Origin: Candidatus Velamenicoccus archaeovorus
Lineage (GTDB): Bacteria; Omnitrophota; Gorgyraeia; Velamenicoccales; Velamenicoccaceae
Length of the DNA stretch: 32,000 nucleotides
Direction: 5' to 3'
Assembly (NCBI RefSeq): GCF_004102945.1
Contig: NZ_CP019384.1
Span: 1,590,001-1,622,000 of the forward strand
Under the pieces are notes generated by a model. That model worked only from the letters and a program-made list of their open reading frames with translations. It had not been told where the DNA came from and did no database searches. This document shows, piece by piece, positions 1 through 15,491 of the stretch; position 1 is the first letter of the stretch, and each line of letters starts with the position of its first letter. A program made the position numbers and the translations under genes.

Positions 1-1042
1 ACCAACAACTAACGCCTATGCCTAAAATAATCATTTTTTTTGCATCTATATGGTTATAAAGCCTTCCTGCAAGAGGCATAAATATAAATAAGGTAAGGGC
101 CCTGGGCAGAAGCGTCAGGCCGGATTGATACGCCGAATACCCCAATAAACTCTGCGTCAACTGCGGCAAAATAAAAGTCGTCCCGTAAAGCGCGATTCCG
201 TATATCCCTACTACGGTAAACCCGATCGCAAACGGAACATTGCGCAATATGCGCAAATTAACAACCGGCTCATCAGTCCACAATTCCCAAAAGATCAAAG
301 CGAGCAACGCAACTACGGATACGATTGACCAGGTTATGATAAATGTGGAATCAAACCAGTTTTTTTCCTGGCCTCTCTCCAAAACTATTTGCAAGGCCGT
401 AAGGCCGACCATAAGAAATGATATACCGAACCAATCGACTTTCTTTATGCCGCGTTTTAGATATTCAGGATCATGCACATAATGATAAACCATCCATATT
501 CCTACCAAGCTGATAGGAATGTTGATATAGAAAATCCATGGCCAGCCATAGTGGTCAATCAGCCAACCGCCCACGATCGGCCCTAACGCGGGCGCCAACA
601 CGATGCCCATCCCGAAAATAGCCATGGCCATACCATGCTGTTTTCTGGGAAAAGTCTCGCGTAAAATTGCCTGGGAAATCGGTATTAGAGCTCCACCCCC
701 TATCCCCTGGATAATCCTATAGATAAGCATTTGGGGGAATGTCTTGGCTGTCCCGCATAAAACCGACCCTATGGTAAACAAAATGAAAGAAAATAAATAA
801 AGGTTTTTCCTGCCCATCAATGCGCTCAGCCAGCCGGTCATGGTAATGACTATAATAGCGGCAATAGTGTAGATGGTAGCTATCCAGGTAATTGCGGATA
901 AGGTTTCGGCAAAGTTCCCCATCATATAGGGAAGAGCGACATTGACTATACTCGTATCCATAACAGACAGGAATGCCCCAAGCATTACCGCTGTCGTAAC
1001 CATCCATTTATTACTGCCATGGGCAGGGCTTTCAGCAACCAT
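1..1042 (-). CDS. emrB: DHA2-family MFS drug-efflux permease (EmrB/QacA-like), N-terminal ~347 codons; continues beyond the left window edge
   Basis: Absent from the ORF track because there is no stop inside the window. Hand translation of the minus strand from ATG at 1042 gives MVAESPAHGSNKWMVTTAVMLGAFLSVMDTSIVNVALPYMMGNF...RIIQGIGGGALIPISQAILRETFPRKQHGMAMAIFGMGIVLAPALGPIVGGWLIDHYGWPWIFYINIP. The frame stays open to position 1. AGGAG lies just upstream, 13 nt after the emrA-like stop. Confidence 0.85.
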   Translation of the reverse strand, partial: MVAESPAHGSNKWMVTTAVMLGAFLSVMDTSIVNVALPYMMGNFAETLSAITWIATIYTIAAIIVITMTGWLSALMGRKNLYLFSFILFTIGSVLCGTAKTFPQMLIYRIIQGIGGGALIPISQAILRETFPRKQHGMAMAIFGMGIVLAPALGPIVGGWLIDHYGWPWIFYINIPISLVGIWMVYHYVHDPEYLKRGIKKVDWFGISFLMVGLTALQIVLERGQEKNWFDSTFIITWSIVSVVALLALIFWELWTDEPVVNLRILRNVPFAIGFTVVGIYGIALYGTTFILPQLTQSLLGYSAYQSGLTLLPRALTLFIFMPLAGRLYNHIDAKKMIILGIGVSCW

Positions 1043-1055
1043 CAATTCTCCTGGT

Positions 1056-1946
1056 TTACTTTATCTTGATAGCAGGTATTACCGACATCCCTAATGCAAG
1101 CGGATGCTTCGGATCAGGTTCTTCATCAAATACTATTTTAACCGGCACCCTTTGTACAATCTTTATGTAGTTACCCGATGCGTTTTCAGGCGGCAAAAGG
1201 CTGAAACGCGCGCCTGTGCCTCTTTGAATACTATCTACATGCCCTTTGAAGACTTTTCCGGGATAAGCGTCTATGGTTATCGTTACCGGCTGGCCAGGCA
1301 ATATATTCTTAAGATCTGTTTCCTTAAGATTAGCCACAACCCAGCGCTCAGGAGTTACGATAGTTAACAGCATCTGGCCAATCTGCACAAATGCGCCCTC
1401 CTCCACTGACTTTTCAGTCACTCTGCCTGCGGATGGCGCATAAATCTTGGTATAGGAAAGCTCAAGCTTTGCTTGTTCTAGAGCGGCTTTTGACTGATCT
1501 GCCTCTGCGTTAGCCACCCTCGCCCTGACAAGAACATGCTCCATGTTCTGTTTAGATATCTCATCGTTTAAAATAAGCTTCTTATAGCGGCTGACGTCTT
1601 CCTCGGCCTGGGCTGCCTTTGCCTGGGCTGCTTCTAAATTTGCCTCTGCCATCTTTAAGCGCGTCTCATAATCACGCGGATCTATCTCGGCTAAAAGCTC
1701 TCCCTCTTTTACTTCCTGATTATCATCGATATAGACTTTTAAGATATGCCCGGAAACCTTAGGGCTGATCGAAATGGCATGTCCTTCGATAAAAGCGTCG
1801 TCTGTGGAGGTATGCGACAAGGCGTAAAAATAATAATAAAGGCCAAAGGAACATCCTAAAATCAGCAAAACAATTGCCGGGATGATGAATCTTTTCTTAT
1901 GCAGCAATTTGATTTTTTTGACCGGAACATTTAACTTATCGCTCAT
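1056..1946 (-). CDS. emrA: HlyD/EmrA-family membrane fusion (periplasmic adaptor) protein
   Basis: 296-aa ORF with an N-terminal TM helix, a coiled-coil stretch (AEANLEAAQAKAAQAEEDV...) and a beta-barrel C-terminus typical of EmrA/HlyD. Only 1 nt separates it from the upstream TolC-like gene. Confidence 0.85.
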   Translation of the reverse strand: MSDKLNVPVKKIKLLHKKRFIIPAIVLLILGCSFGLYYYFYALSHTSTDDAFIEGHAISISPKVSGHILKVYIDDNQEVKEGELLAEIDPRDYETRLKMAEANLEAAQAKAAQAEEDVSRYKKLILNDEISKQNMEHVLVRARVANAEADQSKAALEQAKLELSYTKIYAPSAGRVTEKSVEEGAFVQIGQMLLTIVTPERWVVANLKETDLKNILPGQPVTITIDAYPGKVFKGHVDSIQRGTGARFSLLPPENASGNYIKIVQRVPVKIVFDEEPDPKHPLALGMSVIPAIKIK

Positions 1947-1947
1947 C

Positions 1948-3351
1948 TTATTTTCCTTTCTTGGAAAGAGTAAATGTTTCTATGTTGCCTAAAGCGGAGT
2001 AAAGATTGACCCGTGCCGAATTATACTGAAAAAGCATGGCCACATATTGCTGCCTGGCGCGGGCAAGGGCAGTTTGGGCGTCAATAACCTCAATATTATC
2101 GCCTATACCGGCCAAAAACAAATCCTTGCTCATCTCTAATTCTCTATTGGCTAAAGCAAGAACCTTCTTGGCTGCTCTCACTTGTTTAGCGCTGATAACA
2201 AGCGATTGCAAGGCTAAGCGCACGTCTTCGTCTACCTGCTTGCCTAAGTCGTTAAAAATCAATTGGGATTGGCGTTTATTGCTCTCTGCCTCTTGAATCT
2301 CTCCCTTAATCATTCCGCCGTCAAAAATAGGCATTTTTAAAGCTACGCCAACCTCGCCTACATTCCGTAATGAGCCGTTTGGACTATCGCCGCCCAAGCC
2401 GTAATCACCCATTAGCCCAACGGTAGGCAATCTTCCCGATTTTGCCTCCTTAAGCTTGAATTCGTCGTGCTGAATGCGTTCGCCGGAAATCTTCAGCTCT
2501 GTCCTGTTTTTATTGGCGAAGCCTACCTCTTCGGCGGCGGAGAAAACATGTTCCAGCACAAAATCCATCGTATCTGTCAACTTTAAACGGGTAGTCAACG
2601 GCAACCCGATTACGCGGTTAAGCTCTATATAGGACCTGCGTAAATCCATCGTGGCCTGCAAACTCCTAGCCTCTGCTTCGGCTTCGCGCGTCTCAAACCT
2701 CGCCACATCAATGCTTGTGGCTAATCCTGCCACGTTTTGGTGGCGGCCCAATTTTAAAAGCTGTCTTGCCAGATCCAAATCCGCCTTGGCGGCATCCGAG
2801 TCCTCCTCTGCCCTTAACGCATTCAAATACGCAAGGCTAACCGCTGCCCTCACTTGCTTAGCCGCAAGCTCTTCATCAAGTTGGGCTATTTTAGAATTAA
2901 CCTTTTCGGCCCGGAATCGCTCAATTGCGCTTAAATCGAATATTTGTTGCACCAATTGGATTCTGCCGTCAAAAGAATTATAAGGGCCAATCATCCCGAA
3001 AGAAGAAAACCCCATCTCGACAAGATTTTCTTTAAAAACACGGGATTGTTGCAAGTCAAGTAATACATGCGGCAGGAGGTAAGAAGCCGACTGGAATACT
3101 TTGCCTTTAGCCTCTTCAGTTTTGGCATTGGCCAAAAGAGTAGTAAGATTATTTTTTAAGGCCAATCCTGTGGCATCACTCAAATTCAAGTAAGTATATT
3201 GTTCAACAGATGGTAAATTACCGGTATGTTCAGAAACATCCGTTGAAGCAAAAACCGTAGATGAAAAAAAGAATAAAATTAGAAAAACGAATCTAATGAA
3301 AATGCCTTTCCTAAGGTTAATTTTATTTTTTATGCTATAAGTAAAATTCAT
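1948..3351 (-). CDS. TolC-family outer membrane efflux protein
   Basis: 467-aa ORF with a signal peptide (FLILFFFSSTVFAS) and two OEP-type repeats with long alpha-helical segments. Operon context is MarR, then this gene, then EmrA and EmrB. Confidence 0.8.
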   Translation of the reverse strand: MNFTYSIKNKINLRKGIFIRFVFLILFFFSSTVFASTDVSEHTGNLPSVEQYTYLNLSDATGLALKNNLTTLLANAKTEEAKGKVFQSASYLLPHVLLDLQQSRVFKENLVEMGFSSFGMIGPYNSFDGRIQLVQQIFDLSAIERFRAEKVNSKIAQLDEELAAKQVRAAVSLAYLNALRAEEDSDAAKADLDLARQLLKLGRHQNVAGLATSIDVARFETREAEAEARSLQATMDLRRSYIELNRVIGLPLTTRLKLTDTMDFVLEHVFSAAEEVGFANKNRTELKISGERIQHDEFKLKEAKSGRLPTVGLMGDYGLGGDSPNGSLRNVGEVGVALKMPIFDGGMIKGEIQEAESNKRQSQLIFNDLGKQVDEDVRLALQSLVISAKQVRAAKKVLALANRELEMSKDLFLAGIGDNIEVIDAQTALARARQQYVAMLFQYNSARVNLYSALGNIETFTLSKKGK

Positions 3352-3357
3352 TTGGTT

Positions 3358-3900
3358 TTATTTTCTTCCAGTAACACTGCGTAAAGCAAGAGTTTTTAAT
3401 CTTAATTTGGCCAATATCTTATTCAATTTATGCCGTTCATTACTATTTAAACAAGAAGCGAGCTTTTTCATTTCTAAATAATAAGAAGGAGTAACGGAAT
3501 TACGCAATTCTTCGCCTTTCCTGGTAATTTTAACAATACTTAACCTGCGGTCTTTCTCTGAGCCCTGCCGTTCAACTAAATTCCTGCGCACAAGATTATC
3601 AACCAGTTCCGTTATATTAGCGCGGCTTACCAATAACAAGTCGCTCAATTCTCTATGAGTACATCCCTTGTTTTCACTGCGACTTATAATATTTAAAATA
3701 TTGAGCGTGGAGCGGGAAAGCCCGCTAGCTTCAAGCTTAGACGCAAGATGGTTAAAGATTGCATCGTGCGTATAAATCAGGTTTAAAAACAGCTCTGCTG
3801 AATGCCAATGGAACCATTTGGATTTTTTGCCGTAATCCCGCAGATTACTCAAATAGTAACTTGGCCGCTTATCCTCGCTTGTCTTTTCTATTCTTTGCAT
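3358..3900 (-). CDS. MarR-family transcriptional regulator
   Basis: 180-aa ORF with a winged-helix core (HRELSDLLLVSRANITELVDNLVRRNLVERQGSEKDRRLSIVKITRKGEEL). First gene of the efflux operon. Confidence 0.8.
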   Translation of the reverse strand: MQRIEKTSEDKRPSYYLSNLRDYGKKSKWFHWHSAELFLNLIYTHDAIFNHLASKLEASGLSRSTLNILNIISRSENKGCTHRELSDLLLVSRANITELVDNLVRRNLVERQGSEKDRRLSIVKITRKGEELRNSVTPSYYLEMKKLASCLNSNERHKLNKILAKLRLKTLALRSVTGRK

Positions 3901-3969
3901 GTCTGCCTCCTTTTTATACGGTTGCTATTATTTATAGCACAAAAAGCCATATTTGTCAATATCTTAAAT

Positions 3970-3983
3970 GTTAATATATTAAC
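3970..3983. promoter_or_regulatory. Perfect 14-nt AT-rich palindrome GTTAATATATTAAC, candidate MarR operator
   Basis: Read directly from the sequence, 70-83 nt upstream of the marR-family start (3900, minus strand). MarR regulators typically bind short palindromes in their own promoter. Confidence 0.35.
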
Positions 3984-4056
3984 TAATTAAGCCCATGCTT
4001 GCCAAAAGAATCAGGAGATACTCTATAAATTTTCCCTGAACAAATCACAACACCTT

Positions 4057-4094
4057 AGATATCAAGGAATTATATCTCTATTTACTTGATATCT
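4057..4094. promoter_or_regulatory. 10-bp perfect inverted repeat AGATATCAAG-N18-CTTGATATCT upstream of the DUF2924/recombinase pair
   Basis: Arms at 4057-4066 and 4085-4094, about 50 nt upstream of ATG 4142. It could be an operator or a recombinase site; function is unknown. Confidence 0.3.
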
Positions 4095-4141
4095 CTCGAA
4101 CTGTATGGCTATATGTACATGAAGATGAAAGGAGCCGATTT

Positions 4142-4612
4142 ATGACGGAAACAAAACTATCTCAAATATTGGAACTTAGAGAAAAGTCGATCGGTGAACT
4201 ACAGGGAAAATACGCCGAGCTATTCCCAGGTCAACAGACCCCCTCTAACAATAAAGTGTATTTATGGCGCAAGATCGCATACAGGCTGCAGGAGCTGGAA
4301 TACGGCGGAATTTCTGTGGAGGCCCAGAATAAAATCCAGCAGCTAATCCAGCAATTTGACCCCATAAATAACAAGACGCTGCGGCCCGATGATGCCCTTA
4401 AAGAACGTCCTAAGAAAACAAAACTGAGCCGCGACAAGAGACTGCCCATTCCCGGCACAGTGATCATCAAAGAATACAAAGGTATCAAGCTGGAGGTCAA
4501 AATCCTCGAATCAGGCTTTGAATTCCGTAGCAAGGTCTATAAGAGCCTGACGGCCATAGCCAAAGAAATTACCGGCGCGCACTGGAACGGATACCTGTTC
4601 TTCAATCTATAG
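4142..4612 (+). CDS. DUF2924-like small protein, commonly paired with large serine recombinases
   Basis: 156-aa ORF with AAAGGAG 8 nt upstream. The C-terminal motif YKSLTAIAKEITGAHWNGYLFFNL matches my recollection of DUF2924. It ends 3 nt before the recombinase gene. Confidence 0.6.
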   Translation: MTETKLSQILELREKSIGELQGKYAELFPGQQTPSNNKVYLWRKIAYRLQELEYGGISVEAQNKIQQLIQQFDPINNKTLRPDDALKERPKKTKLSRDKRLPIPGTVIIKEYKGIKLEVKILESGFEFRSKVYKSLTAIAKEITGAHWNGYLFFNL

Positions 4613-4615
4613 GGA

Positions 4616-6262
4616 ATGATCATGGAAGAGACAAAACAATCCAAGAAACGCATCTACTGCGCCATTTACACGCGCAAATCAACCTCTGAAGGACTTGATC
4701 AGAACTTCACATCCCTTGATGCTCAAAGAGAAGCCGCCGAAAACTACATTAACAGCCAAAAACATGAAGGCTGGGTTGTGCTTCAAGAACCCTATGATGA
4801 CGGAGGATTCACAGGCGCAAATATGGATAGGCCTGGACTACAAAAACTACTTTCAGAGATCAAGAATCAGAAAATCAACTGCGTCGTGGTCTACAAAGTC
4901 GATAGGCTATCCCGCTCCCTGACGGATTTTGCGCAGTTGCTCGAATTCTTTGACAAAAACAACGTGACATTTGTTTCTGTAACGCAATCATTCAACACCA
5001 ATACCTCAATGGGCCGACTGACGCTGAACATCCTCCTTTCTTTCGCGCAGTTTGAACGTGAAATTGCCCGCGAAAGAACCAAAGACAAGATGTCCGCTGC
5101 CAGGAAACGCGGCCAATGGACCGGCGGCATAGCTCCCTTAGGCTATTGCGTGGATGACAATAAGAAATTAATCGTAGACCCCGAAGGCGCAAAGGTAGTC
5201 CGTGAGATCTTTGACCTCTATCTCAAGGGCAACTCTACGCTCAAAATCGTACATATGTTCAATGAGAAGGGCTATAAGACGAACAAGATAGCCTGTAAGA
5301 ACGGCAAAACCTTAGGTGGGGTCAAATATAGCGTTGCAAGAATCCAATGGATGCTCCGGCATCCGATCTATATGGGTAAAGCACTATACAATGGCCAGAT
5401 TTATGATGGCGAGCATGAAGCTATTATCGACGAGGAAACCTTCAAGAAAACCCAAGCCTTGCTCAATGAAAACCACAGGGAACGAAAAGCAACAAAGAAC
5501 GTAGACTGCACAGGCTTATTGAGCCGTATTCTACACTGCAAGATCTGCGGAACCTATATGACACATACCTATACCATAAGAAACGGCACTCACAAATACC
5601 GCTATTACACCTGCACCAATGCTCAGAAGCTTGGCCATAGCTCCTGCCCTACCAGATCCGTCAATTCCAAGGCAATCGAAGACGCCGTGGTCAACTGTCT
5701 GCGAGAGATCTTCTCCGATAAAAGCAAAAGAGAAAAACACGCCTATAAACAGGAAACCGACGCTCTTCTGTCGCCTGTTTGGGACACCCTGCATCCACAA
5801 GAAAAGCGGCGCATCTTCAAGATATTGCTCAAGGAAGTCGACTATACGGCCAGTAGCAAAAAACTCGGCATAACGCTCGCCGATAACGACCTGAGGCTTG
5901 AGTTTGATGCGGATTTACAGCAGGTGCGGCCTTTAAACAAGTGGCACAAAGAAGAAGAAATCAAAAAAGAACCCACCGTTCGAACAATGCTTGTCTTAGC
6001 TCATCAAGTCCAACAGCTCGTCAATACTGGAAAGATCAAGCATCCCCGCGAGGCTTGTAAGTGGCTTAACCTAAGTGTGACGCGCATGGATCAAACCATG
6101 AATACTCTTTTCCTATGTCCTGCCATTCAAAGTGAGATCCTCTCTACCGACACGCCTGCCATCAACGCGCTCACAGAGTTCAAAATTCGCCCTCTCCTCA
6201 AAGAAGCCATCTGGACCGATCAATTAGCCAAGTGGCAAACCTTGATCGCCGGTAACCGCTAA
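4616..6262 (+). CDS. Large serine recombinase (resolvase/invertase N-domain + recombinase domain + zinc ribbon)
   Basis: 548 aa. N-terminal catalytic motif YCAIYTRKSTSEGLDQ..SLDAQREA and VYKVDRLSRS. A Cys cluster (CKICG...YYTCTN...SCP) fits the zinc-ribbon recombinase domain, followed by a long C-terminal extension. Confidence 0.9.
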   Translation: MIMEETKQSKKRIYCAIYTRKSTSEGLDQNFTSLDAQREAAENYINSQKHEGWVVLQEPYDDGGFTGANMDRPGLQKLLSEIKNQKINCVVVYKVDRLSRSLTDFAQLLEFFDKNNVTFVSVTQSFNTNTSMGRLTLNILLSFAQFEREIARERTKDKMSAARKRGQWTGGIAPLGYCVDDNKKLIVDPEGAKVVREIFDLYLKGNSTLKIVHMFNEKGYKTNKIACKNGKTLGGVKYSVARIQWMLRHPIYMGKALYNGQIYDGEHEAIIDEETFKKTQALLNENHRERKATKNVDCTGLLSRILHCKICGTYMTHTYTIRNGTHKYRYYTCTNAQKLGHSSCPTRSVNSKAIEDAVVNCLREIFSDKSKREKHAYKQETDALLSPVWDTLHPQEKRRIFKILLKEVDYTASSKKLGITLADNDLRLEFDADLQQVRPLNKWHKEEEIKKEPTVRTMLVLAHQVQQLVNTGKIKHPREACKWLNLSVTRMDQTMNTLFLCPAIQSEILSTDTPAINALTEFKIRPLLKEAIWTDQLAKWQTLIAGNR

Positions 6263-6510
6263 TCAAAACCTGCCTGAAAAATTCCAGTTTCTCGCCAATT
6301 ATTCGATCAAAATACGCGATATATCGTCGAATAATCGCGACACTGACTCCAAGAAACTAATCGCCAATTCCGAGATAAAGAGATAGTTTGGCGAGATTTA
6401 CTTGGCTAGATCTTGCGAACCTGCAGGAGGATTTGAAGCTGAGATCGTAAACGCTAAAACAATGAAAAAAATTATGCCCTAACTCTTTGACACAGCAAGA
6501 CAAAGAAAAA

Positions 6511-6543
6511 GCCCTGACCGGTTCGCCCAGTCAGGGCTTTTTC
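6511..6543 (+). terminator. Rho-independent terminator-like hairpin (bidirectional appearance)
   Basis: GCCCTGAC (6511-6518) pairs with GTCAGGGC (6530-6537). It is followed by TTTTTC and preceded by an A-run. Confidence 0.6.
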
Positions 6544-6575
6544 TATCTCTCTATGTGGATTTCGAGAGATCATAG

Positions 6576-6904
6576 TGGTTGCGGGGGTCCGATTTGAACG
6601 GACGGCCTCAAGGTTATGCTTTACTACTACAGCTTTCGCTGCCACCGGCACTATTCCGGCTTTGTAGTCCGGACTATCCCTTAATCCTCATTTTAAGAGG
6701 ATTCCTGCCAACTAGTCTCTACACCTTCTCCCACCGTTTTGATTCGCTTTTACGAATGCAAAACGAATCAATGGGAGCTTGGCTCGGTATTACCCTGGCT
6801 TAAAGCCGAGGGCTTCACCGAATTTGACAGGTTTTCCATCGGCCGTTACCGGCCGTGGGACCCATTGTTGAGCCTTGCGAGCTACCAGGCTGCTCCACCC
6901 CGCG
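6576..6904 (-). tRNA. Initiator tRNA-fMet(CAU) gene interrupted by a 252-nt intron in the anticodon loop
   Basis: The exons are 6904-6871 (CGCGGGGTGGAGCAGCCTGGTAGCTCGCAAGGCT) and 6618-6576 (CATAACCTTGAGGCCGTCCGTTCAAATCGGACCCCCGCAACCA). Joined, they give a 77-nt cloverleaf very close to E. coli tRNA-fMet. Initiator marks present: C1xA72 mismatch, A11:U24, loop CUCAUAA, T-loop TTCAAAT and an encoded CCA. Only 2 of the 3 canonical G:C pairs are present in the anticodon stem. Confidence 0.9.
6619..6870 (-). ncRNA. Group I intron (IC3-like, tRNA-type), no ORF
   Basis: The 5' exon ends in U and the intron ends in G (..GUAGUAAAG|CAUAA). Core strings match the Azoarcus tRNA-Ile and cyanobacterial tRNA introns as I recall them: GUCAAAUUCGG (6828-6818), CCGAGCCAAGC (6787-6777), AAGGUGUAGAGACUAG (6727-6712) and GCAGCGAAAGCUG near the 3' end. 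There is a GNRA-capped hairpin GGCCG-GUAA-CGGCC. A possible 4-bp P1 forms between exon GGCU and intron GGUC. Confidence 0.85.
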
Positions 6905-6939
6905 ATCATTCATTGTACAGAAAGAACAATGAAACGCAA

Positions 6940-7239
6940 CTATTCTTTTGAAGCATTCGTCTGATTCACGACGTCAACTTCATCCTCGCGTATGATCTTA
7001 AGCACCGTCTCGCCCTTCTTGACGATACCCATCTTGTCGCGCGCCACCATCTCCAGATACGCCGTATTGTTCTGCAGCTGGGCGATCCTCTGCTCCAGGA
7101 TGGCGTTCTGGCGCTGCGCCTTCCTGATCTTTTCTTCGGTCTCCGCCAGCTTGGCCTTCAACTCCTGAAACTTGGCAAACCCCGGCAGGAAGATGATGAG
7201 CAAAATAACAAAAATGATGAAAAGCCGCAAATTCTTCAA
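6940..7239 (-). CDS. ftsB: FtsB/DivIC-family septum formation initiator
   Basis: 99 aa with an N-terminal TM helix (LFIIFVILLIIFLPGF), a coiled coil and then the conserved YLEMVARDKMGIVKKGE motif. Located immediately downstream of eno. Confidence 0.75.
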   Translation of the reverse strand: MKNLRLFIIFVILLIIFLPGFAKFQELKAKLAETEEKIRKAQRQNAILEQRIAQLQNNTAYLEMVARDKMGIVKKGETVLKIIREDEVDVVNQTNASKE

Positions 7240-7266
7240 GGTCTCTTCCCACAGGCGGCAGCCGTC

Positions 7267-7288
7267 CCTTCGGCCTTATGGCCGAAGG
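7267..7288 (-). other. 9-bp perfect stem-loop between eno and the ftsB-like gene
   Basis: CCTTCGGCC-TTAT-GGCCGAAGG. No U-tract follows on the minus strand, so it is not a canonical intrinsic terminator. Confidence 0.4.
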
Positions 7289-7297
7289 CCTTAAAGC

Positions 7298-8656
<1,359 letters not shown>

Positions 8657-8715
8657 TCAAGGGATTTAATATATCCCCAAAGAGCCCCGGGGTTCACGAA
8701 CGAAAGAATGCCGCA

Positions 8716-8744
8716 TTGACACGAACAACGATTTATGTTATCTT
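8716..8744 (+). promoter_or_regulatory. Sigma70-like promoter TTGACA-N17-TATCTT for the FtsH-like gene
   Basis: The -35 element is at 8716-8721 and the -10 at 8739-8744. The -10 ends only 9 nt before ATG 8754 and no SD is visible. Confidence 0.45.
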
Positions 8745-8753
8745 CAGACTATT

Positions 8754-10403
8754 ATGAAAATCGATAAATTCACCTATAAACAGATCAAGACATTCCTGCG
8801 TGACCACTGGATCGCCGTCACGAGCACCGTGGTCACCATTGTGCTCACAGGCCTCTCCATCTGGGGCTTTATGGGCCTGGAGTCTTTTTACCGCAAGATG
8901 CAGCTGGCCCAGCTACCCATCCAGATCATGATGTGGATACTGGCATCAGCCATCTCGGCGATCATCTACGTATCGCTCATGTTCGGCCGCTTCGGCCAGA
9001 TCGACACCAAAAAAGTCCGGGGCTCCAAGGTCAATGTCAACTTTGCAGACGTCCTGGGCATCGATGAGGCCAAAGAAGAGGCGATCGAAGTCGTCAACCT
9101 CCTTAAAGACCATTCCGCCGTCCAAAAGGTCGGCGGAAAGATCATCAAAGGCTTACTCATGATCGGGCCTCCCGGATGCGGCAAGACGTATCTGGCCAAG
9201 GCCATCGCCACAGAAGCCGGCCTGCCGTTTTTGTCTTTGTCGGCCAGTGAATTCACAGAGATATTCGTCGGGGTCGGCGCCAGGCGCGTCCGCAAGCTCT
9301 TCAAGCAGGCCCGGCGCCTGGCCTATGCGCACGGCGGGGCCATCGTCTTCATCGACGAAATCGATGCCATCGGACGCACCCGCACCTTCAGCTTCATGAG
9401 CGGCCAGGAAGGCAACACCACCTTAAACCAGCTTCTGGTCGAAATGGACGGCCTGCAGGACGAAAAGGAAAACGTCGTCGTGATCGGCGCGACCAACTCT
9501 CCCGAAGACGTGCTCGACCCGGCGATCCTGCGCCCGGGGCGCTTCGACCGAAAGATCTATATCGAAAAACCGAACCTTCAGGGCCGCGAAGAGGTCTTAA
9601 GGTTCTATCTAAGCAAGGTCCCTTATGACAAGTCCATCGATATCGGCAAGGTGGCGCGCCAGGCGGTCTACAAGTCGCCCGCAGACCTGGAAAACATCGT
9701 CAAAGAGGCCTCCATCATCTGCCTGCGCAACAAGCGCGACGTGATCACCCACAAGGACATCTCCGAAGCCATGGAACGCATCGATCTGGGGATCAAACAT
9801 CGCAAACACATGACGCACGACGAAAAACGCCTGGTGGCCTACCACGAAGCCGGCCACCTGATTGCACTTTATTTGCTCCATCCGACGGACGACGTCTTCA
9901 AGGCCTCCATCATCGCGCGCCGCGGCGCCCTCGGGGTCGTCCACCATCAGCCCCGCGAAGAGATCTTCACCTCCAACAGGGAAAGACTCATGGCCAATAT
10001 CCAGGTGTCGGTCGCCGGATACCTGGCGGAAAAACTGACATTCGGGACGACATCCGACGGCGTTTTATCCGATTTCAACAACGCCATGCGCGTCGCCCAT
10101 ATCATGGTCTGGCGCCTCGGGATGGACGGCAAACACCTGGGAGACTTCACCGCTATTCCCGAACAGCAGATCTCCGAACAGGTCAAGGGTGAATTGAACC
10201 AGGAGACCCAGCGGATTTTCCAGGAATGCGTCGCCAAGACCGAAACGCTCCTGCGGGATGAAAACGTGTTGTTGAACCGCTTTGCCAACGAACTCCTGAA
10301 AAAAGAAGAGCTCGAATTCGATGAAATCGATGCCATCTTCAAGGAATACAACAAAACCAAATTCGGCTCACTGCCGACCCCTCCCTATCAGAAACCTGTT
10401 TAA
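8754..10403 (+). CDS. ftsH: FtsH-like AAA+ zinc metalloprotease (short form without a large periplasmic domain)
   Basis: 549 aa with two closely spaced N-terminal TM helices. Carries Walker A GPPGCGKT, Walker B VFIDEIDA, an SRH region and the M41 zinc motif HEAGH. Confidence 0.85.
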   Translation: MKIDKFTYKQIKTFLRDHWIAVTSTVVTIVLTGLSIWGFMGLESFYRKMQLAQLPIQIMMWILASAISAIIYVSLMFGRFGQIDTKKVRGSKVNVNFADVLGIDEAKEEAIEVVNLLKDHSAVQKVGGKIIKGLLMIGPPGCGKTYLAKAIATEAGLPFLSLSASEFTEIFVGVGARRVRKLFKQARRLAYAHGGAIVFIDEIDAIGRTRTFSFMSGQEGNTTLNQLLVEMDGLQDEKENVVVIGATNSPEDVLDPAILRPGRFDRKIYIEKPNLQGREEVLRFYLSKVPYDKSIDIGKVARQAVYKSPADLENIVKEASIICLRNKRDVITHKDISEAMERIDLGIKHRKHMTHDEKRLVAYHEAGHLIALYLLHPTDDVFKASIIARRGALGVVHHQPREEIFTSNRERLMANIQVSVAGYLAEKLTFGTTSDGVLSDFNNAMRVAHIMVWRLGMDGKHLGDFTAIPEQQISEQVKGELNQETQRIFQECVAKTETLLRDENVLLNRFANELLKKEELEFDEIDAIFKEYNKTKFGSLPTPPYQKPV

Positions 10404-11244
10404 GATTCCACCCGCCTTTCTTGCAGTCGTCGCAGCCACAGTCCTTCTTTTAGGCTGTGAACCGACGTATCCGGTAAAAACCATGCCGCAGCAGCTCGCC
10501 CGCATGGTCAAGAATGAGGTCGGTATTGACATCCACATCCGCATCACCGGAAAGACCATGTGGATCTACGTGCCGATGACAGACCTGATTGAAGAGAAAA
10601 CGGCGGGATGGGACAAGGCGGGTCTCGAAAAGCTCAATAAGGTCATGAACGCGGCGCACCGTGTTATCTTGAGCACGGACGCCAAGCTTGATTTCCTGGC
10701 CGTCGTCGGCGCGGACATCAAAAAATTCGGCGTCGCCCTTCTGACGGTAGAATATATCCCCGACCTCGAACAGGCCGTCCTTGAAAAATTCTCCCGTGGC
10801 GAATACTTCATGCGCAGCGTGCGCGATGTGCGCTTTGACCCAACCCTTATCGGAGATACGACGGGAGAAACGCAGAGTTACCGCGACATCACCTTCGACG
10901 AATTCATCTGCATGCAGATCATCCACCGCGCCAAGAGCCTCTTCGCCAAAGACAAGAAACTCAATAATCTTTTTGAACTCAAAACAACCTCCTACACACA
11001 GAAATTCGGAATTCTGAAGTTGGAGTTCGAATTTCTGCGCAAACGTTACGACTTGAGCCCGGAGGAAGAAAACATCAAACCCCTGGACTACGTCAAGCAG
11101 ATCGCCGCCGAGGTCATCCAGAATTACAACTACAAGGACATCCAGGGCGTAGAGCTGACGGATACGTTCTCGGAGGAAACCGTCAAGCTTAGCCTCGATG
11201 AGCTTAAAAAGATGAAGGTGGAACTCCCGGAATACCGGGACTAG
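10321..11244 (+). CDS. Hypothetical lipoprotein (start uncertain)
   Basis: 307-aa ORF with a lipobox-like AATVLLLGC after a hydrophobic stretch. The listed ATG overlaps the ftsH-like gene by 83 nt, so the true start may be downstream near 10396-10405 (non-ATG). I recognise no family. Confidence 0.5.
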   Translation: MKSMPSSRNTTKPNSAHCRPLPIRNLFKIPPAFLAVVAATVLLLGCEPTYPVKTMPQQLARMVKNEVGIDIHIRITGKTMWIYVPMTDLIEEKTAGWDKAGLEKLNKVMNAAHRVILSTDAKLDFLAVVGADIKKFGVALLTVEYIPDLEQAVLEKFSRGEYFMRSVRDVRFDPTLIGDTTGETQSYRDITFDEFICMQIIHRAKSLFAKDKKLNNLFELKTTSYTQKFGILKLEFEFLRKRYDLSPEEENIKPLDYVKQIAAEVIQNYNYKDIQGVELTDTFSEETVKLSLDELKKMKVELPEYRD

Positions 11245-11867
11245 GTTTTCTCTGGATGGGATGCGGGCAGGACGCGGCGGCCTTTCAGGATAAGCCCGCC
11301 GGACAAAACCTTCTTGATCGCTTCGGGATAAATCCGGTGTTCGACCTTGTGGATCTTCTTCTCCAAACTCTCCATGGTATCCGTCGCAAGCACCCGCACA
11401 GGCTCCTGGACAATGATAGGGCCGTGGTCAACCTCCTCATCGACAAAATGGACGGTGACCCCGGTGACGCCGACGCCGTAGCGAAAGGCGTCTTTGATGG
11501 CGCGCTCACCGGGAAAAGCCGGCAGAAGCGCAGGATGGATATTCAGGATGCGGTTCCTGTAGGCCCGCACGAACGACGGCGAAAGGATCCGCATGAAACC
11601 CGCCAAAACAATTAAGTCGACTTCTTGCGCCTTGAGGTGACGCAGGACCGCTGCGTCATAGGCCCGGCGGTCCCTGTAATCTTTCGGATCCAAAAACAAG
11701 GTGCTGATGCCTGCGCGACGGGCCCTCTTCAATGCAAAGGCATCCTTTTTGTCGCTGACCACGAGCGCTATCCGCGCCTTCAACGCGCCGCGGACGACCG
11801 CGTTCATGATCGCCTGCAAGTTCGTCCCGTTCCCCGAAACAAAAACAGCGATAGTCTTCATAGGCAT
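11241..11867 (-). CDS. purN: Phosphoribosylglycinamide formyltransferase
   Basis: The N-terminus IAVFVSGNGTNLQAI, the motifs LAGFMRIL, NIHPALLP and VTGVTVHFVDEEVDHGPII are PurN hallmarks. An alternative start is at 11861. Confidence 0.92.
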   Translation of the reverse strand: MPMKTIAVFVSGNGTNLQAIMNAVVRGALKARIALVVSDKKDAFALKRARRAGISTLFLDPKDYRDRRAYDAAVLRHLKAQEVDLIVLAGFMRILSPSFVRAYRNRILNIHPALLPAFPGERAIKDAFRYGVGVTGVTVHFVDEEVDHGPIIVQEPVRVLATDTMESLEKKIHKVEHRIYPEAIKKVLSGGLILKGRRVLPASHPEKT

Positions 11868-11868
11868 C

Positions 11869-12693
11869 TCATCGTGACGGTGAAGGCTGTGCGCCCCTCA
11901 CCTTGATGACTTTTGTCGGACAAACCTTGGCGCACTCAAGACAACCCGTACATTTATCATAATCGATGCGCGCCAGGTTGTCGATGACGGCCACCGCGCC
12001 GTGGGGACAGGCCTTTTCGCAGCGACGGCAAGCGATGCAGCCGACGCCGCAGACGGACATGACGACTTTCCCCGAATCGTTCGACGTGCACGCCACATAA
12101 ATTTTTGCTTTTTCTGGTTCAAAAGGAATGAGCGTGTAGAGCCCTTTGGGACAGACGTTCACGCATATGCCGCAGGCCGTGCACTTGGATTCGATGACAC
12201 GAGGGAAACCTTCCCCCGTCATTTCAATCGCGTCGAACGGGCAGGCCTTGACGCATGTCCCGTACGTCAGGCAGCCATAGGCGCATTCTTTCTGGCCGCC
12301 CAGGACCAGCGAGGCCGCCAGACAGTCCTTGATGCCGTCGTATAAAAACTTGTCTTTGGCGTGGTTGCCGCCGCAACAATGCAGACAGGACACCTTTTTG
12401 GCCTTTTCTTCCAGGCTCAACCCCAGGATAGCGGCAATGTCTTTCTTGTTCTCCGTCGCCGCGACGGAACAGGAATGAAGATCGAGTTCTCCGGCCAAGA
12501 GCGCCTGCGCAAAACCCATGCAGCCGGCCTTGCCGCAGGAGCCGCAATTGGCACCCGGCAGCTTGGCCAGGATCCTCTCGATCGTCGGATCCACCGGAAC
12601 ATGGAATTTCTTCGCCGCATAAGCCAGCACAAACCCGAAAAAGATCCCCAGGCCGCACAGTGTCGCTATGGAAGCAATAATGCTGGTCGCCAT
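11869..12693 (-). CDS. rnfB: Rnf electron-transport complex subunit B
   Basis: N-terminal TM helix, the CGSCGKAGC cluster and several CxxCxxCxxxCP ferredoxin motifs. Last gene of the rnf string. Confidence 0.88.
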   Translation of the reverse strand: MATSIIASIATLCGLGIFFGFVLAYAAKKFHVPVDPTIERILAKLPGANCGSCGKAGCMGFAQALLAGELDLHSCSVAATENKKDIAAILGLSLEEKAKKVSCLHCCGGNHAKDKFLYDGIKDCLAASLVLGGQKECAYGCLTYGTCVKACPFDAIEMTGEGFPRVIESKCTACGICVNVCPKGLYTLIPFEPEKAKIYVACTSNDSGKVVMSVCGVGCIACRRCEKACPHGAVAVIDNLARIDYDKCTGCLECAKVCPTKVIKVRGAQPSPSR

Positions 12694-12700
12694 GTTGCCG

Positions 12701-13303
12701 TTATATCCTCATACCTACGAACCCCATAAAAGCCAGGCTCATGATCGAAGCGATGATGAAGGCGATCGGGAGCCCCTCCATCGATTCGGGGATGTCCGCC
12801 AGCTCAAGGCGTTCGCGGATACCCGACATCAACATCAGGACAAAAAGGAAACCGACCCCGGCGCAAAATACCTGAAGCACGGAATAGCCGAAGCTTCCGG
12901 TGATCGCCTTGCCTCCGGCAAAAAAATCCTCCGTATTGATGACCGTCACGCCCAGAACGATGCAATTGGTCGTGATCAAGGGCAGATAGATGCCAAGCGC
13001 GCGGTAGAGCGCCGGCGACATCTTCAAGATGACCATCTCGATGAACTGGACCGATGCGGCGATGACCAGGATGAAAACAACCGTGCGCATATAATCGATC
13101 CTGAAAGGAAGTAAAACATAATTGTAGGCGGCCCAGGTCATGGCGCCCGACAAAAGCAGGACGAAGATAACGGCCAGGCCCATGCTGAAAGCGGGCTTTG
13201 TCTGCTTGGAAACGCCCAAAAAAGGACAAAGCCCCATGAACCTAAAGAGGATATAGTTGTTAATGAGGAGATTGCTGATTATGATCGCAAAGATCTTGCC
13301 CAT
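12701..13303 (-). CDS. rnfA: Rnf complex subunit A
   Basis: 200-aa polytopic membrane protein. The N-terminus ...NNYILFRFMGLCPFLGVS is typical of RnfA/NqrE. Confidence 0.88.
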   Translation of the reverse strand: MGKIFAIIISNLLINNYILFRFMGLCPFLGVSKQTKPAFSMGLAVIFVLLLSGAMTWAAYNYVLLPFRIDYMRTVVFILVIAASVQFIEMVILKMSPALYRALGIYLPLITTNCIVLGVTVINTEDFFAGGKAITGSFGYSVLQVFCAGVGFLFVLMLMSGIRERLELADIPESMEGLPIAFIIASIMSLAFMGFVGMRI

Positions 13304-13872
13304 TTAATGACTCCCATAAGAAGCCCCAGGATGAGGAGCGCGCCCGGCGCCAGAGACAGGACAAGCGCCGGCTCAAAGCGATGAGAAATGCTTAAGCCCG
13401 CCAAGGTGCCGTTGCCGAGGGTCTCGCGGATCGCCGAGATGATGAGGAGCGCCAGAGTGAACCCCAGACCCATCCCCAGGCCGTCGGCCAGCGACGGCAA
13501 AACCGGGTTTTTCGACGCAAAAGCCTCGGCCCGGCCCAGGATGATACAGTTGACGACGATCAGAGGCACGTAAACGCCCAGCGCCCTGTTTAAGGCCGGC
13601 GCATAGGCCTTCATGACCATCTCGACGATGACGACGAAGGCGGCGATCACGACGATATAACACGGGATGCGGATCTTGTCCGGAACAAGCCTGCGGATCG
13701 CCGAAATGATGACATTGGAGCAGACCAAAACGAACGTCGCCGCCAACCCCATCCCGACGGCATTATTGACGGATGTCGAGACGGCGAGCGTCGGACAAAG
13801 ACCGAGGACGATGAAAAAGATGGGGTTTTCCGAAAAAATGCCCTTGATAAATTCGTGCCAGAGTCTTTTCAT
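13279..13872 (-). CDS. rnfE: Rnf complex subunit E
   Basis: RnfE/NqrD-like sequence (NPIFFIVLGLCPTLAVSTS, VNCIILGRAEAF). Start trimmed to ATG 13872, which forms an ATGA overlap with the rnfD stop. Confidence 0.85.
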   Translation of the reverse strand: MKRLWHEFIKGIFSENPIFFIVLGLCPTLAVSTSVNNAVGMGLAATFVLVCSNVIISAIRRLVPDKIRIPCYIVVIAAFVVIVEMVMKAYAPALNRALGVYVPLIVVNCIILGRAEAFASKNPVLPSLADGLGMGLGFTLALLIISAIRETLGNGTLAGLSISHRFEPALVLSLAPGALLILGLLMGVIKWARSLRS

Positions 13873-14828
13873 CGACTCGCTCCATATCTGCGCTTCTGCA
13901 CGAAACGATCGATCAGCGGGGCGGCCGCATTCATGATCAGGATGGAATAGCATACGCCTTCGGGGTATCCGCCCCAGCGGCGGATGACGCCCGTCAACAG
14001 GCCGCAGCAGACGCCGAAAATCACCTGGCCCTTTTTAGTGACCGGCGACGTCACGTAATCCGTCGCCATGAAGAACGCGCCCAGGACCAGGCCGCCGGAG
14101 AGGACCTGAAAAAGCGCATCGCCCCGGCCGAAACCATCCGGGGAACCGAAGGCCCACATGAAAACAGCGACGGTGGCCACATAGCTGACCGGCGTATGCC
14201 AGCTGATGATGCCTTTGTACAAAAGATAAACGCCCCCCAAAAGCAAGGCCAGGATGCACACCTCGCCGAGCGCGCCGCCGCGGTTGCCGATCAAAAGGTC
14301 CCAGTAGGAAAGGCCGAGGTCGACAACCCCAGAAGCCTTGCCTTCTTTGATCAGAGACAGGGGCGTCGCCTGCGTCACGGCGTCATAGACGAACGGCTTA
14401 GTGAACGTCGTCATATATTTCGGCCATGCCGCCATAAGAAACGCCCGGCCGGCCAGGGCCGGATTAAAGATATTGCGGCCTAACCCGCCGAAGGCCTGCT
14501 TGGCAATGGCGATGGCAAAGATGCTGCCGACCGCCGCCACCCAAAGCGGGCAGTGCGCCGGCAGGTTATAGGCCAACAAAAGCCCTGTCATAAAGGCGCT
14601 GCCGTCGCAAACGGTCACTTTTTGTCCCCGCGCCTTCTGGATCAAGGCCTCCGTCCCGGCAGCCGCCAGGACGCTCGACAGGACCACCCACAGCGCCGAC
14701 GGCCCGAAGATAAACAGGGCGACCAGGCCCGACGGGATCAACGCCAGATTGACCCGCCACATGATGCCGGCGATGGACTCGTTTTTACGCATATGGGGGG
14801 CATGTGCCACAAAAAATTTATCGGCCAT
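13869..14828 (-). CDS. rnfD: Rnf complex subunit D
   Basis: NqrB/RnfD-family polytopic protein (MADKFFVAHAPHM..., FFMATDYVTSP). Start trimmed from 15074 to ATG 14828. The long N-terminal extension in the ORF track overlaps rnfG in another frame. Confidence 0.85.
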   Translation of the reverse strand: MADKFFVAHAPHMRKNESIAGIMWRVNLALIPSGLVALFIFGPSALWVVLSSVLAAAGTEALIQKARGQKVTVCDGSAFMTGLLLAYNLPAHCPLWVAAVGSIFAIAIAKQAFGGLGRNIFNPALAGRAFLMAAWPKYMTTFTKPFVYDAVTQATPLSLIKEGKASGVVDLGLSYWDLLIGNRGGALGEVCILALLLGGVYLLYKGIISWHTPVSYVATVAVFMWAFGSPDGFGRGDALFQVLSGGLVLGAFFMATDYVTSPVTKKGQVIFGVCCGLLTGVIRRWGGYPEGVCYSILIMNAAAPLIDRFVQKRRYGASR

Positions 14829-15414
14829 CTTGTACGCTCTCCATGATTTTTCCGGCTTTTTCTTCGACGGAAACGATGACGGCCAAAGAAGAAATCGTGG
14901 CGCCCGTGATCGTTTCCACATTGCGCTCCAGGCCCTTATAGCTCTTGGACTCGAACTGGGTCTGAAACCACGGCCGAGGCTTCTGTGAGATATTGGCCTT
15001 CCTGAGGACAACATCCCAGAACGTCTCTTTTTGCCTGACTTCTTCGATGCGCGACCCGAGTCCAGGCGTCTCATTCTGTGACAGGATCTTGATGCGTTGA
15101 ATGATGCCCTTGGTATCCATGCCCACCATGGTCACGATCGTGCTGGAATATCCCTTCTTTTCCGCCTTAAAGGCATATCCCAGAAGATCGCCCGATGTAT
15201 TCAAGGCCTTGTAATAAAAAACGCTTCCCTTGTCTTCCACCGGCTCAAAACGCGCCGCCCCTGGATAGACATCCTGGAGAGCCGACTCTTCCTCCATTTT
15301 CGCCTGGGCCGCGATCTTCGGCTGCGTCACGTTATACACAACGCTCAAAAGCCCTGAAGCCGCCAAGCAGATGATAGCCAATGTCGCCGCATACCTGACA
15401 AAATTATTTTGCAT
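14818..15414 (-). CDS. rnfG: Rnf complex subunit G (FMN-binding)
   Basis: N-terminal TM helix plus an FMN_bind domain with SQNETPGLG and the TGATISS flavinylation-type motif. Start taken at ATG 15414. Confidence 0.82.
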   Translation of the reverse strand: MQNNFVRYAATLAIICLAASGLLSVVYNVTQPKIAAQAKMEEESALQDVYPGAARFEPVEDKGSVFYYKALNTSGDLLGYAFKAEKKGYSSTIVTMVGMDTKGIIQRIKILSQNETPGLGSRIEEVRQKETFWDVVLRKANISQKPRPWFQTQFESKSYKGLERNVETITGATISSLAVIVSVEEKAGKIMESVQDGR

Positions 15415-15491
15415 GTTTAATGAGCACACGACTTATGGAAACATAAGTCGCTGTGCGAATTGAATCCGCCATCGCTCTATGGCGGAAACGA

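Follow-up and report, generated by a model that had tools for sequence, protein, structure and literature searches.

A group I intron in the initiator tRNA gene (tRNA-fMet) has been reported from the cyanobacteria Scytonema, Dermocarpa and Synechocystis PCC 6803 (Biniszkiewicz, Cesnaviciene and Shub, 1994, as cited in PMC8450103), and the literature, in the portions accessible to us, places this intron and the "close homologues" of its endonuclease in cyanobacteria only. The accessible sections of the tRNAscan-SE 2.0 paper and its supplement name only cyanobacterial cases of tRNA-fMet introns, the hosts of tRNA group I introns given in a review of tRNA genes from 2014 are cyanobacteria and alpha- and beta-proteobacteria, and introns are unmentioned in two large Omnitrophota genome papers. 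Here, we describe a tRNA-fMet(CAU) gene located on the minus strand (positions 6904-6576) of a 32-kb stretch of contig NZ_CP019384.1 (32,000 nt, analysed as a whole and referred to as the window), which is interrupted at U33/C34 by a group I intron of 252 nt devoid of an open reading frame (ORF). It is very probably a working initiator tRNA gene of an Omnitrophota bacterium, of the species represented by the metagenome-assembled genome (MAG) of Ca. Velamenicoccus archaeovorus, and its intron is very probably self-splicing. The locus is of a known kind: a group I intron in tRNA-fMet with which a PD-(D/E)XK homing endonuclease is associated.

The interrupted gene and its intron consist of the following parts:

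6871-6904, minus strand: exon 1, tRNA-fMet positions 1-33 including 17a (34 nt, CGCGGGGUGGAGCAGCCUGGUAGCUCGCAAGGCU, ending GGCU33), delimited with ARAGORN in intron mode and kept in 83 homologous loci; it contains the 5' strand of the acceptor stem with C1, the D arm with A11, the 5' strand of the anticodon stem (CAAGG), C32 and U33
6619-6870, minus strand: ORF-less group I intron inserted at U33/C34 (252 nt, CAACAAUGGGUCC...GUAGUAAAG), identified by family RF00028, fold and covariation
6576-6618, minus strand: exon 2 (43 nt, CAUAACCUUGAGGCCGUCCGUUCAAAUCGGACCCCCGCAACCA, CAUAACC...ACCA), with the T stem paired in 415/415 alignment cells; it contains the anticodon CAU, A37 and A38, the 3' strand of the anticodon stem (CCUUG), the variable loop, the T arm, the 3' strand of the acceptor stem with A72, A73 and the encoded CCA
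6859-6874, minus strand: P1 hairpin, G30 G31 C32 U33 and intron C1 A2 (6874-6869) paired with the guide UGGGUC (6864-6859)
6836-6858, minus strand: P2 hairpin with a GUAA tetraloop and one bulged A, compensatory changes at 9/9 pairs
6704-6831, minus strand: catalytic core, with P3 (6831-6826 with 6709-6704), J3/4 AAAU, P4 (6821-6816 with 6789-6784), P5 (6812-6793), P6 (6783-6781 with 6725-6723), the P6a-c hairpin (6777-6728) and the P7 5' strand G(A)GACUA (6719-6713)
6671-6703, minus strand: P8 (6703-6683), J8/7 and the P7 3' strand UAGUCC (6676-6671)
6619-6668, minus strand: P9 three-way junction, with P9 ACUAC/GUAGU, P9a and P9b with a GAAA tetraloop (6668-6623), followed by AAA and the omega-G (6619)

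In the window, the gene is detected neither by ARAGORN at default settings nor by the Rfam tRNA model. ARAGORN in intron mode reports a tRNA-Met(cat) with an intron i(35,252), and the joined exons form a 77-nt cloverleaf of a tRNA-Met(CAU). The spliced sequence is identical at 67 of its 77 positions to what we take to be the sequence of Escherichia coli tRNA-fMet, and it carries the CAU anticodon, the C1xA72 mismatch and the A11:U24 pair (GAGC..GCUC) of initiator tRNAs. As a CA dinucleotide is present at both junctions, the window alone permits three junction placements, of which only 33/34 provides both a U preceding the 5' splice site and a terminal G. The ambiguity is removed by homologues whose introns start with UG, UA or CG and which fix the site at U33/C34, the position given in a preliminary description of this DNA made from its sequence. 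Because most of the introns start with CA, ARAGORN misplaces them in the homologues (Leu-CAA, Ser and Val calls), and the exons were therefore parsed directly.

The intron matches Rfam family RF00028 over the full length of the model (positions 1-253) with 57.6 bits (gathering score 50) and an E value of 2.7e-12 over the whole window. Its minimum free energy (MFE) fold reaches -102 kcal/mol (z = -7.3 against 200 dinucleotide shuffles) and, computed without guidance, recovers P2-P6, P8 and the P9 junction. A P1-P9 model, hand-built on the Rfam alignment together with the sequence, has 85 pairs, every one of them canonical in the window intron. The group I boundary marks are present, with a U before the 5' splice site and a G (6619) as the last intron base. 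P1 is formed by GGCUCA/UGGGUC, in which U33.G is the 5' splice-site wobble, and is closed by the 4-nt loop ACAA (6868-6865), the position occupied by an endonuclease ORF in related introns; the 415-nt ORF-bearing insert of a near-identical locus (L193, below) maps here. An AUG at 6865-6863, overlapping the guide, is able to pair with C34 A35 U36 of exon 2 (P10), and this pairing explains why the intron, like exon 2, starts with CA and why the junction is ambiguous at the sequence level. P7, the presumed guanosine-binding helix, is a pseudoknot of 6676-6671 with 6719-6713 containing a bulged A. The preliminary description, which had called the element a group I intron from its boundaries and core strings and had proposed an RF00028 search and a P1-P9 fold, is thus borne out by the U.G pair at the 5' splice site, the terminal G and a P3-P7 core with covariation support.

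For the comparative analysis, 83 complete cases (including the window) were aligned. In each of them, exon 1 ends with GGCU, an intron of 191-314 nt ends in G (83/83) and exon 2 starts with CAUAAC. Pairing was found in 85.9% of the alignment cells, compared with 75.4% in shuffled alignments (0/500 reached the observed value) and 33-45% when the partner strand was slid by 1-3 columns. P3, P4 and P7 are paired in 100% of the 83 sequences, P9 in 93% and P9b in 95%. Compensatory double changes were recorded at all pairs of P2 (9/9), P6a (6/6), P8 (7/7) and P9b (5/5), at most pairs of P3 (4/6) and P5 (6/7), and at 1/6, 1/6 and 2/5 pairs of P4, P7 and P9, respectively. The splice-site U.G and the C32-G pair were found in 83/83 sequences.

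The exons are equally constrained: A11:U24 is present in 83/83 and a non-Watson-Crick 1:72 pair in 80/83 homologues, the T stem is paired in 415/415 cells despite 33 distinct stem sequences across the 83 genomes, and the 11 variants of the anticodon stem are all fully paired, two of them by G.U wobble. The exons of the homologues are clearly under selection, and their co-variation across the intron strongly suggests that the gene is spliced and used. The copies from Patescibacteria mostly have A1xA72 and do not encode the CCA. Two intron-less tRNA-fMet-like genes (L093 and L113) have C33 in place of U33 (GGCC|CAU), a substitution that would deprive a group I intron of the U required before its 5' splice site.

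For comparison with the cyanobacterial intron, a search with the I-Ssp6803I sequence was performed, and the DNA of three named hits and of the closest hit was retrieved. The host gene and the insertion point are the same as in the window. In Scytonema hofmannii PCC 7110 (L188), the junctions read ...GCUCGUCGGGCU | CGAUAC...GGUAAG | CAUAACCCGAAGG, i.e., GGCU|intron|CAUAAC, and Calothrix NIES-22 (L189) likewise has GGCU | intron | CAUAAC. In a Synechocystis-like contig (L192), whose ORF is 95% identical to I-Ssp6803I, GCU precedes the intron (exon 1 being cut by the contig end) and the intron ends ...G | CAUAACCC. These junctions place the insertion site at U33/C34 in cyanobacteria, too. The window core shares 69-75% identity with the cyanobacterial tRNA-fMet introns over 152 well-aligned columns; the mean core identity is 72% between Omnitrophota and cyanobacteria and 76% within Omnitrophota. 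Moreover, the ORF-bearing relatives of the window intron encode an I-Ssp6803I homologue in the P1 loop, overlapping P1/P2, as reported for Synechocystis, ORF-less members like the window copy also occur in the cyanobacterial family (Scytonema), and a patchy distribution with intron-less alleles is a trait of both. The window intron differs in its host (Omnitrophota), the lack of an ORF, an elongated P6a-c hairpin and a 4-nt P1 loop, in contrast to the long P1 extension of the Scytonema and Calothrix introns. On these sequence features, it is an ORF-less form of the mobile family to which the cyanobacterial tRNA-fMet intron belongs.

Other group I introns of bacterial tRNA genes are more distant counterparts. 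Those of Azoarcus tRNA-Ile(CAU) and Agrobacterium tRNA-Arg(CCU) have been described (Reinhold-Hurek and Shub, 1992, as cited in PMC4033280). They are likewise small, ORF-less and located in the anticodon loop, but of a different tRNA. Their insertion follows position 36, not 33, and the Azoarcus intron is about 205 nt long with a shorter P6 and P9; to our knowledge, no endonuclease is associated with either. Three core strings of what we take to be the Azoarcus intron sequence are near-identical to those of the window (GUCAAAUUCGG.GAA, CCGAGCCAAGC and GAAGGUGUAGAGACUAG). The tRNA-Leu(UAA) intron of cyanobacteria and plastids is also an anticodon-loop group I intron of a different tRNA, inserted between positions 34 and 35; its Anabaena copy, as we take its sequence to read, has the same P9 three-way junction and a GAAA-capped hairpin before the terminal G. 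This intron has been described as anciently and vertically inherited, not sporadic.

The host of the window could be assigned by comparison with L193 (contig JBEEQD010001629), part of a MAG labelled Ca. Velamenicoccus archaeovorus (GCA_041890195.1), which is 99.24% identical to window positions 6870-16869. The two share the gene order Rnf complex, formyltransferase, FtsH-like protease, enolase, DivIC/FtsB and tRNA-fMet. Based on the flank identity and this gene order, the window and L193 belong to one species of Omnitrophota, whose genome contains an Rnf operon, in agreement with the earlier view of the host as an anaerobic diderm rather than a cyanobacterium.

The distribution of the intron family was examined by two scans. 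In the scan of species genomes (one genome per species), a junction-spanning pattern composed of an exon anchor and the J3/4-P4 motif, with at most 55 nt from the splice site to J3/4, matched 90 loci. This number is a lower bound, since the length limit causes cyanobacterial copies (with their long P1 extension) and all endonuclease-bearing copies to be missed; the absence of cyanobacteria from the hits is thus a property of the pattern and not of biology. According to their labels, the hits comprise (i) about 38 Omnitrophota, (ii) 24 Patescibacteria, (iii) three Elusimicrobia, (iv) 15 uncultured Planctomycetia/Planctomycetales, many with Omnitrophota-like enolase synteny, (v) one each of Margulisiibacteriota, Armatimonadota and a "Deltaproteobacteria" MAG, and (vi) six with no label beyond "bacterium" or "uncultured bacterium". 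The hit in Fibrella (L067), also counted among the 90, was rejected as a chance match with no tRNA.

The scan of metagenome contigs relied on an exon-2 pattern that is blind to the presence of an intron. Among its 97 loci, 61 are intron-less (GGCU|CAU), 28 contain the intron and 8 are of other types (exon-2-only repeats and C33 variants). Intron-less alleles were found in the shared eno/ftsB synteny, for example in L098 (with a 92% identical enolase), L146, L116 and L164. The intron lengths are bimodal (213-249 and 624-666 nt). The same arrangement, with a 661-nt ORF-bearing intron, is present in the complete genome of the cultured Bacteroidota strain Hymenobacter weizhouensis. On an 84.5-kb IMG/VR viral contig (L194), which has 16 other tRNA genes inside 11.5 kb, a tRNA-fMet gene (8920-9193) is interrupted at U33/C34 by a group I intron of 199 nt. 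Phages are a possible vehicle for the spread of the intron between phyla; a blastn search of the window locus against phage genomes gave no match.

The preliminary description had noted no homing-endonuclease ORF in the intron, and a tblastn search with the endonuclease of the family found neither an ORF nor a remnant of it in the intron or in the rest of the window. A gene for an endonuclease of family PF11645 is present in the P1 loop of the introns of L193, L156, L161, L117 and others, but absent from that of the window copy. In the long introns, the ORF (approximately 145 codons) starts at intron nt 3, fills the P1 loop and ends within P1/P2. The same layout is tabulated for Synechocystis PCC 6803 (PMC3073962). 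The ORF of L161, a relative whose flank is approximately 90-96% identical to that of the window, matches Protein Data Bank (PDB) entry 2OST with an E value of 1.9e-43 over 138 residues and Pfam PF11645 (PDDEXK_5) with 152 bits; an NCBIfam scan of the endonuclease gave no match. We take 2OST, titled only "putative endonuclease" in its PDB entry, to be I-Ssp6803I. NCBI records name such ORFs of Omnitrophota MAGs "group I intron-associated PD-(D/E)XK endonuclease"; cluster representatives of this protein family number more than 1000.

L193 allows a direct comparison with the window. Its intron is 666 nt long and contains an intact 145-aa ORF, and the flanking DNA is 99.24% identical over 10 kb. 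Exactly 415 nt, corresponding to the ORF, are missing from the P1 loop of the window copy. The remaining precursor tRNA (pre-tRNA) differs by 16 substitutions, all at positions 36-176 (P1 to P6), directly 3' of the ORF site; several of them are compensatory (P2 and P6). Positions 177-329 are identical (153/153). The divergence therefore amounts to about 11% over a 140-nt patch inside near-identical DNA. This pattern suggests a recent recombination or gene-conversion tract by which the endonuclease gene may have either entered or left the intron along with adjoining intron sequence; the exchange would be recent because all 16 differences adjoin the ORF site and the rest is near-identical.

Further forms of the intron were distinguished among the relatives. 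Frameshifted endonuclease ORFs are present in L117 and L103. In the introns of L119 and L148 (234-236 nt), nt 1-30 consist of the start of the ORF region (CGAUGGAYAC) and its end (GUGUCCAAUGGG) joined by GUGA; these are clean ORF deletion remnants, forming a small hairpin that extends P1. The ORF-bearing, frameshifted, deleted and intron-less forms represent the ordinary life cycle of a homing-endonuclease intron. In Scytonema hofmannii PCC 7110 (L188, 1501-1983) and Calothrix NIES-22 (L189, 1501-1980), the I-Ssp6803I homologue is free-standing, its gene starting about 70-90 nt downstream of a tRNA-fMet gene whose own intron is ORF-less. The U33/C34 intron of the tRNA-fMet gene of L019 (5264-6198, minus strand), found also in L059, is about 935 nt long; an insert of approximately 700 nt just after the 5' strand of P7 encodes a double-motif LAGLIDADG endonuclease (LAGLIDADG_2, 57.6 bits). 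A second, unrelated homing-endonuclease family has thus colonised this intron family at another position.

The window precursor would follow the standard group I pathway. Exon nucleotides G30-U33 would pair with the guide UGGGUC to form P1 with the U33.G wobble, and an external guanosine nucleotide bound in P7 would attack after U33. The terminal G (6619) would subsequently occupy the P7 site while a 3-bp P10 (CAU with AUG) holds exon 2, and ligation of the exons would yield the 77-nt tRNA.

Several observations weigh against a working, self-spliced initiator tRNA. The anticodon stem (CAAGG/CCUUG) has two consecutive G:C pairs (G30:C40 and G31:C39) and, with A29:U41, not the canonical three (29:41, 30:40 and 31:39). 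The initiator hallmarks listed in the preliminary description hold for CAU, C1xA72 and A11:U24, but in the anticodon stem they are weaker than it implied. The two-G:C stem is common to 52 of the 83 homologues, and three consecutive G:C pairs occur in only 31, the window not being among them. Initiator tRNAs with such a stem occur in some bacteria; the feature weakens the case for an initiator function and leaves it standing. A scan for sigma-70-type promoters upstream of the tRNA gene yielded no candidate that passed, the sole match, within exon 2, being discounted; a sequence picked by eye (TTGCGT-16 nt-TACAAT at approximately 6935-6908) may serve as the promoter. The P1 loop has just 4 nt, and the exon share of P1 is 4 bp, two of them G.U. 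The set of helices (a single P2, a P9 junction and no P5abc extension) fits a tentative assignment to subgroup IC3, for which the Azoarcus and Anabaena intron sequences serve as reference. Finally, splicing, aminoacylation and tRNA function of the window gene are predictions drawn from its sequence.

These observations could be taken to indicate a dead copy, whose intron no longer splices or whose tRNA is unused, with another intact initiator tRNA gene serving the cell. The loss of the endonuclease ORF, the minimal P1 loop and the departure from the three-G:C rule would agree with such decay, and the count of tRNA-fMet genes covers the 32-kb window only, within which an ARAGORN scan found no second one. 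On the other hand, all helices of the window intron are fully canonical, its 3' half and exon 2 are identical (153/153) to those of the conspecific ORF-bearing copy, compensatory changes make up several of the 5'-half differences, and the exons show strict compensatory evolution across 83 genomes. We regard a dead copy as very improbable. Even less credible is an artefact of assembly or binning, e.g., a chimeric contig joining a tRNA gene and a foreign intron, as might be suspected for an uncultured organism and a locus adjoining a mobile island: the same exon-intron-exon layout is present in 83 independently assembled species genomes, in 28 metagenome contigs, in the complete genome of the cultured Hymenobacter and in cyanobacterial genomes, and L193 reproduces the flank at 99.2% identity. 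Both the artefact and the dead pseudogene were rejected on these counts.

A different question is whether the intron is kept because it benefits the host and is not a tolerated selfish element. The intron might tie the supply of initiator tRNA to guanosine-nucleotide levels, or the split of the palindromic anticodon stem-loop DNA might deprive the homing endonuclease, as well as integrative elements recombining in the anticodon loop, of their target. The occurrence of the family in about 90 species genomes of several phyla with an intact, covarying core, the persistence of endonuclease-less introns in many genomes and the use of tRNA-fMet as an attachment site (the L152 element and six more loci with exon-2-only repeats, described below) are compatible with a benefit. 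However, the family is patchily distributed, with 61 of the 97 metagenome loci intron-less and many of them sharing the eno synteny (e.g., L098), ORF-bearing, frameshifted and ORF-deleted forms coexist as in the ordinary selfish cycle of gain, decay and loss, and, its intron notwithstanding, the window gene is bordered by an island on the 3' side. Retention for host benefit therefore seems unlikely. We hold the same doubtful view of the combined proposal that small-genome lineages such as Omnitrophota and Patescibacteria have no initiator tRNA gene other than the interrupted one and that its intron is kept for the host's benefit, through ribozyme-dependent supply or target removal. A working initiator tRNA gene interrupted by a self-splicing member of a mobile intron family remains the preferred reading.

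The novelty of the locus is lowered by the same-site cyanobacterial family and by the I-Ssp6803I-type endonuclease in a near-identical strain. Its significance lies in the host range, which is extended beyond cyanobacteria to Omnitrophota, Patescibacteria, Elusimicrobia, Margulisiibacteriota, Armatimonadota, a cultured Hymenobacter and a tRNA-rich viral contig. Because the gene escapes standard tRNA finders, an initiator tRNA will seem to be missing from genomes of these lineages, and statistics on completeness or on the tRNA complement will be wrong. The 99.2%-identical strains that differ in the endonuclease gene, with the divergence in the adjoining ribozyme half, provide a clean natural snapshot of the cycle of gain and loss, and the alignment of about 110 introns is a rich comparative set for a small ribozyme. 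Should there be no initiator tRNA gene besides the interrupted one, these organisms would depend on a ribozyme for all translation initiation. The breadth of hosts, the blind spot for initiator tRNA in annotation and the endonuclease polymorphism between strains are noteworthy, but none of them is surprising in principle.

The 3' end of the tRNA gene abuts a region of low GC content (36-48% below position ~6500, compared with 53-59% above), which carries the following features:

1-6575, no strand: low-GC island, abutting the tRNA 3' (CCA) end, with its far end beyond the window (GC profile, Pfam)
1056-1946, minus strand: HlyD-like gene (Pfam)
1948-3351, minus strand: TolC/OEP gene (Pfam)
3358-3900, minus strand: MarR gene (Pfam)
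4142-4612, plus strand: DUF2924 gene (Pfam)
4616-6262, plus strand: large serine recombinase gene (Pfam)
6504-6544, no strand: 18-bp GC-rich hairpin flanked by an A-run and a T-run, located inside the island between the convergent recombinase and tRNA genes

The homology between the window and L193 ends exactly at 6576, beyond which L193 has a terminator and a radical-SAM gene, and the island is absent from L193. The GC break with a recombinase-bearing segment, already recorded in the preliminary description, can thus be traced in the GC profile, the Pfam matches and the homology end, and can be attributed to an integrated serine-recombinase island, a neighbour of the intron and not part of it. 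With known islands at tRNA 3' ends it shares the low-GC start at the tRNA end, the recombinase beside the tRNA and the absence from a 99.2%-identical strain. When exon 2 and the tRNA 3' end were searched for elsewhere in the window, only chance matches of 9-10 nt came up; the repeat at the far end, which would define the attachment core, would fall beyond position 1.

Related recombinases (82% identity) are encoded beside intron-less tRNA-fMet genes in three Omnitrophota contigs (L100, L153 and L184), and in L065 a related island follows 19 nt that repeat the 3' end of the tRNA. In L152, a 3.1-kb element lies between a 44-nt repeat starting at U33/C34 (475-518) and an intact intron-less gene (3610-3686). 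Exon-2-only repeats that start at U33/C34 after unrelated sequence were found in six further loci (e.g., L104, L166, L140, L147 and L183), a pattern suggesting that integrative elements use the anticodon loop for recombination, exactly where the intron is inserted. Together, the L152 element and the related serine-recombinase islands identify the tRNA-fMet gene as an attachment site for at least two types of elements.

Between 6460 and 6576, Rfam gave weak matches (Thr leader, rimP leader and others), all of which are below the gathering score and are explained by the hairpin at 6504-6544, a probable two-way terminator. As this hairpin is located inside the island, the terminator of the tRNA gene was replaced on integration, and L193 has a different hairpin there.

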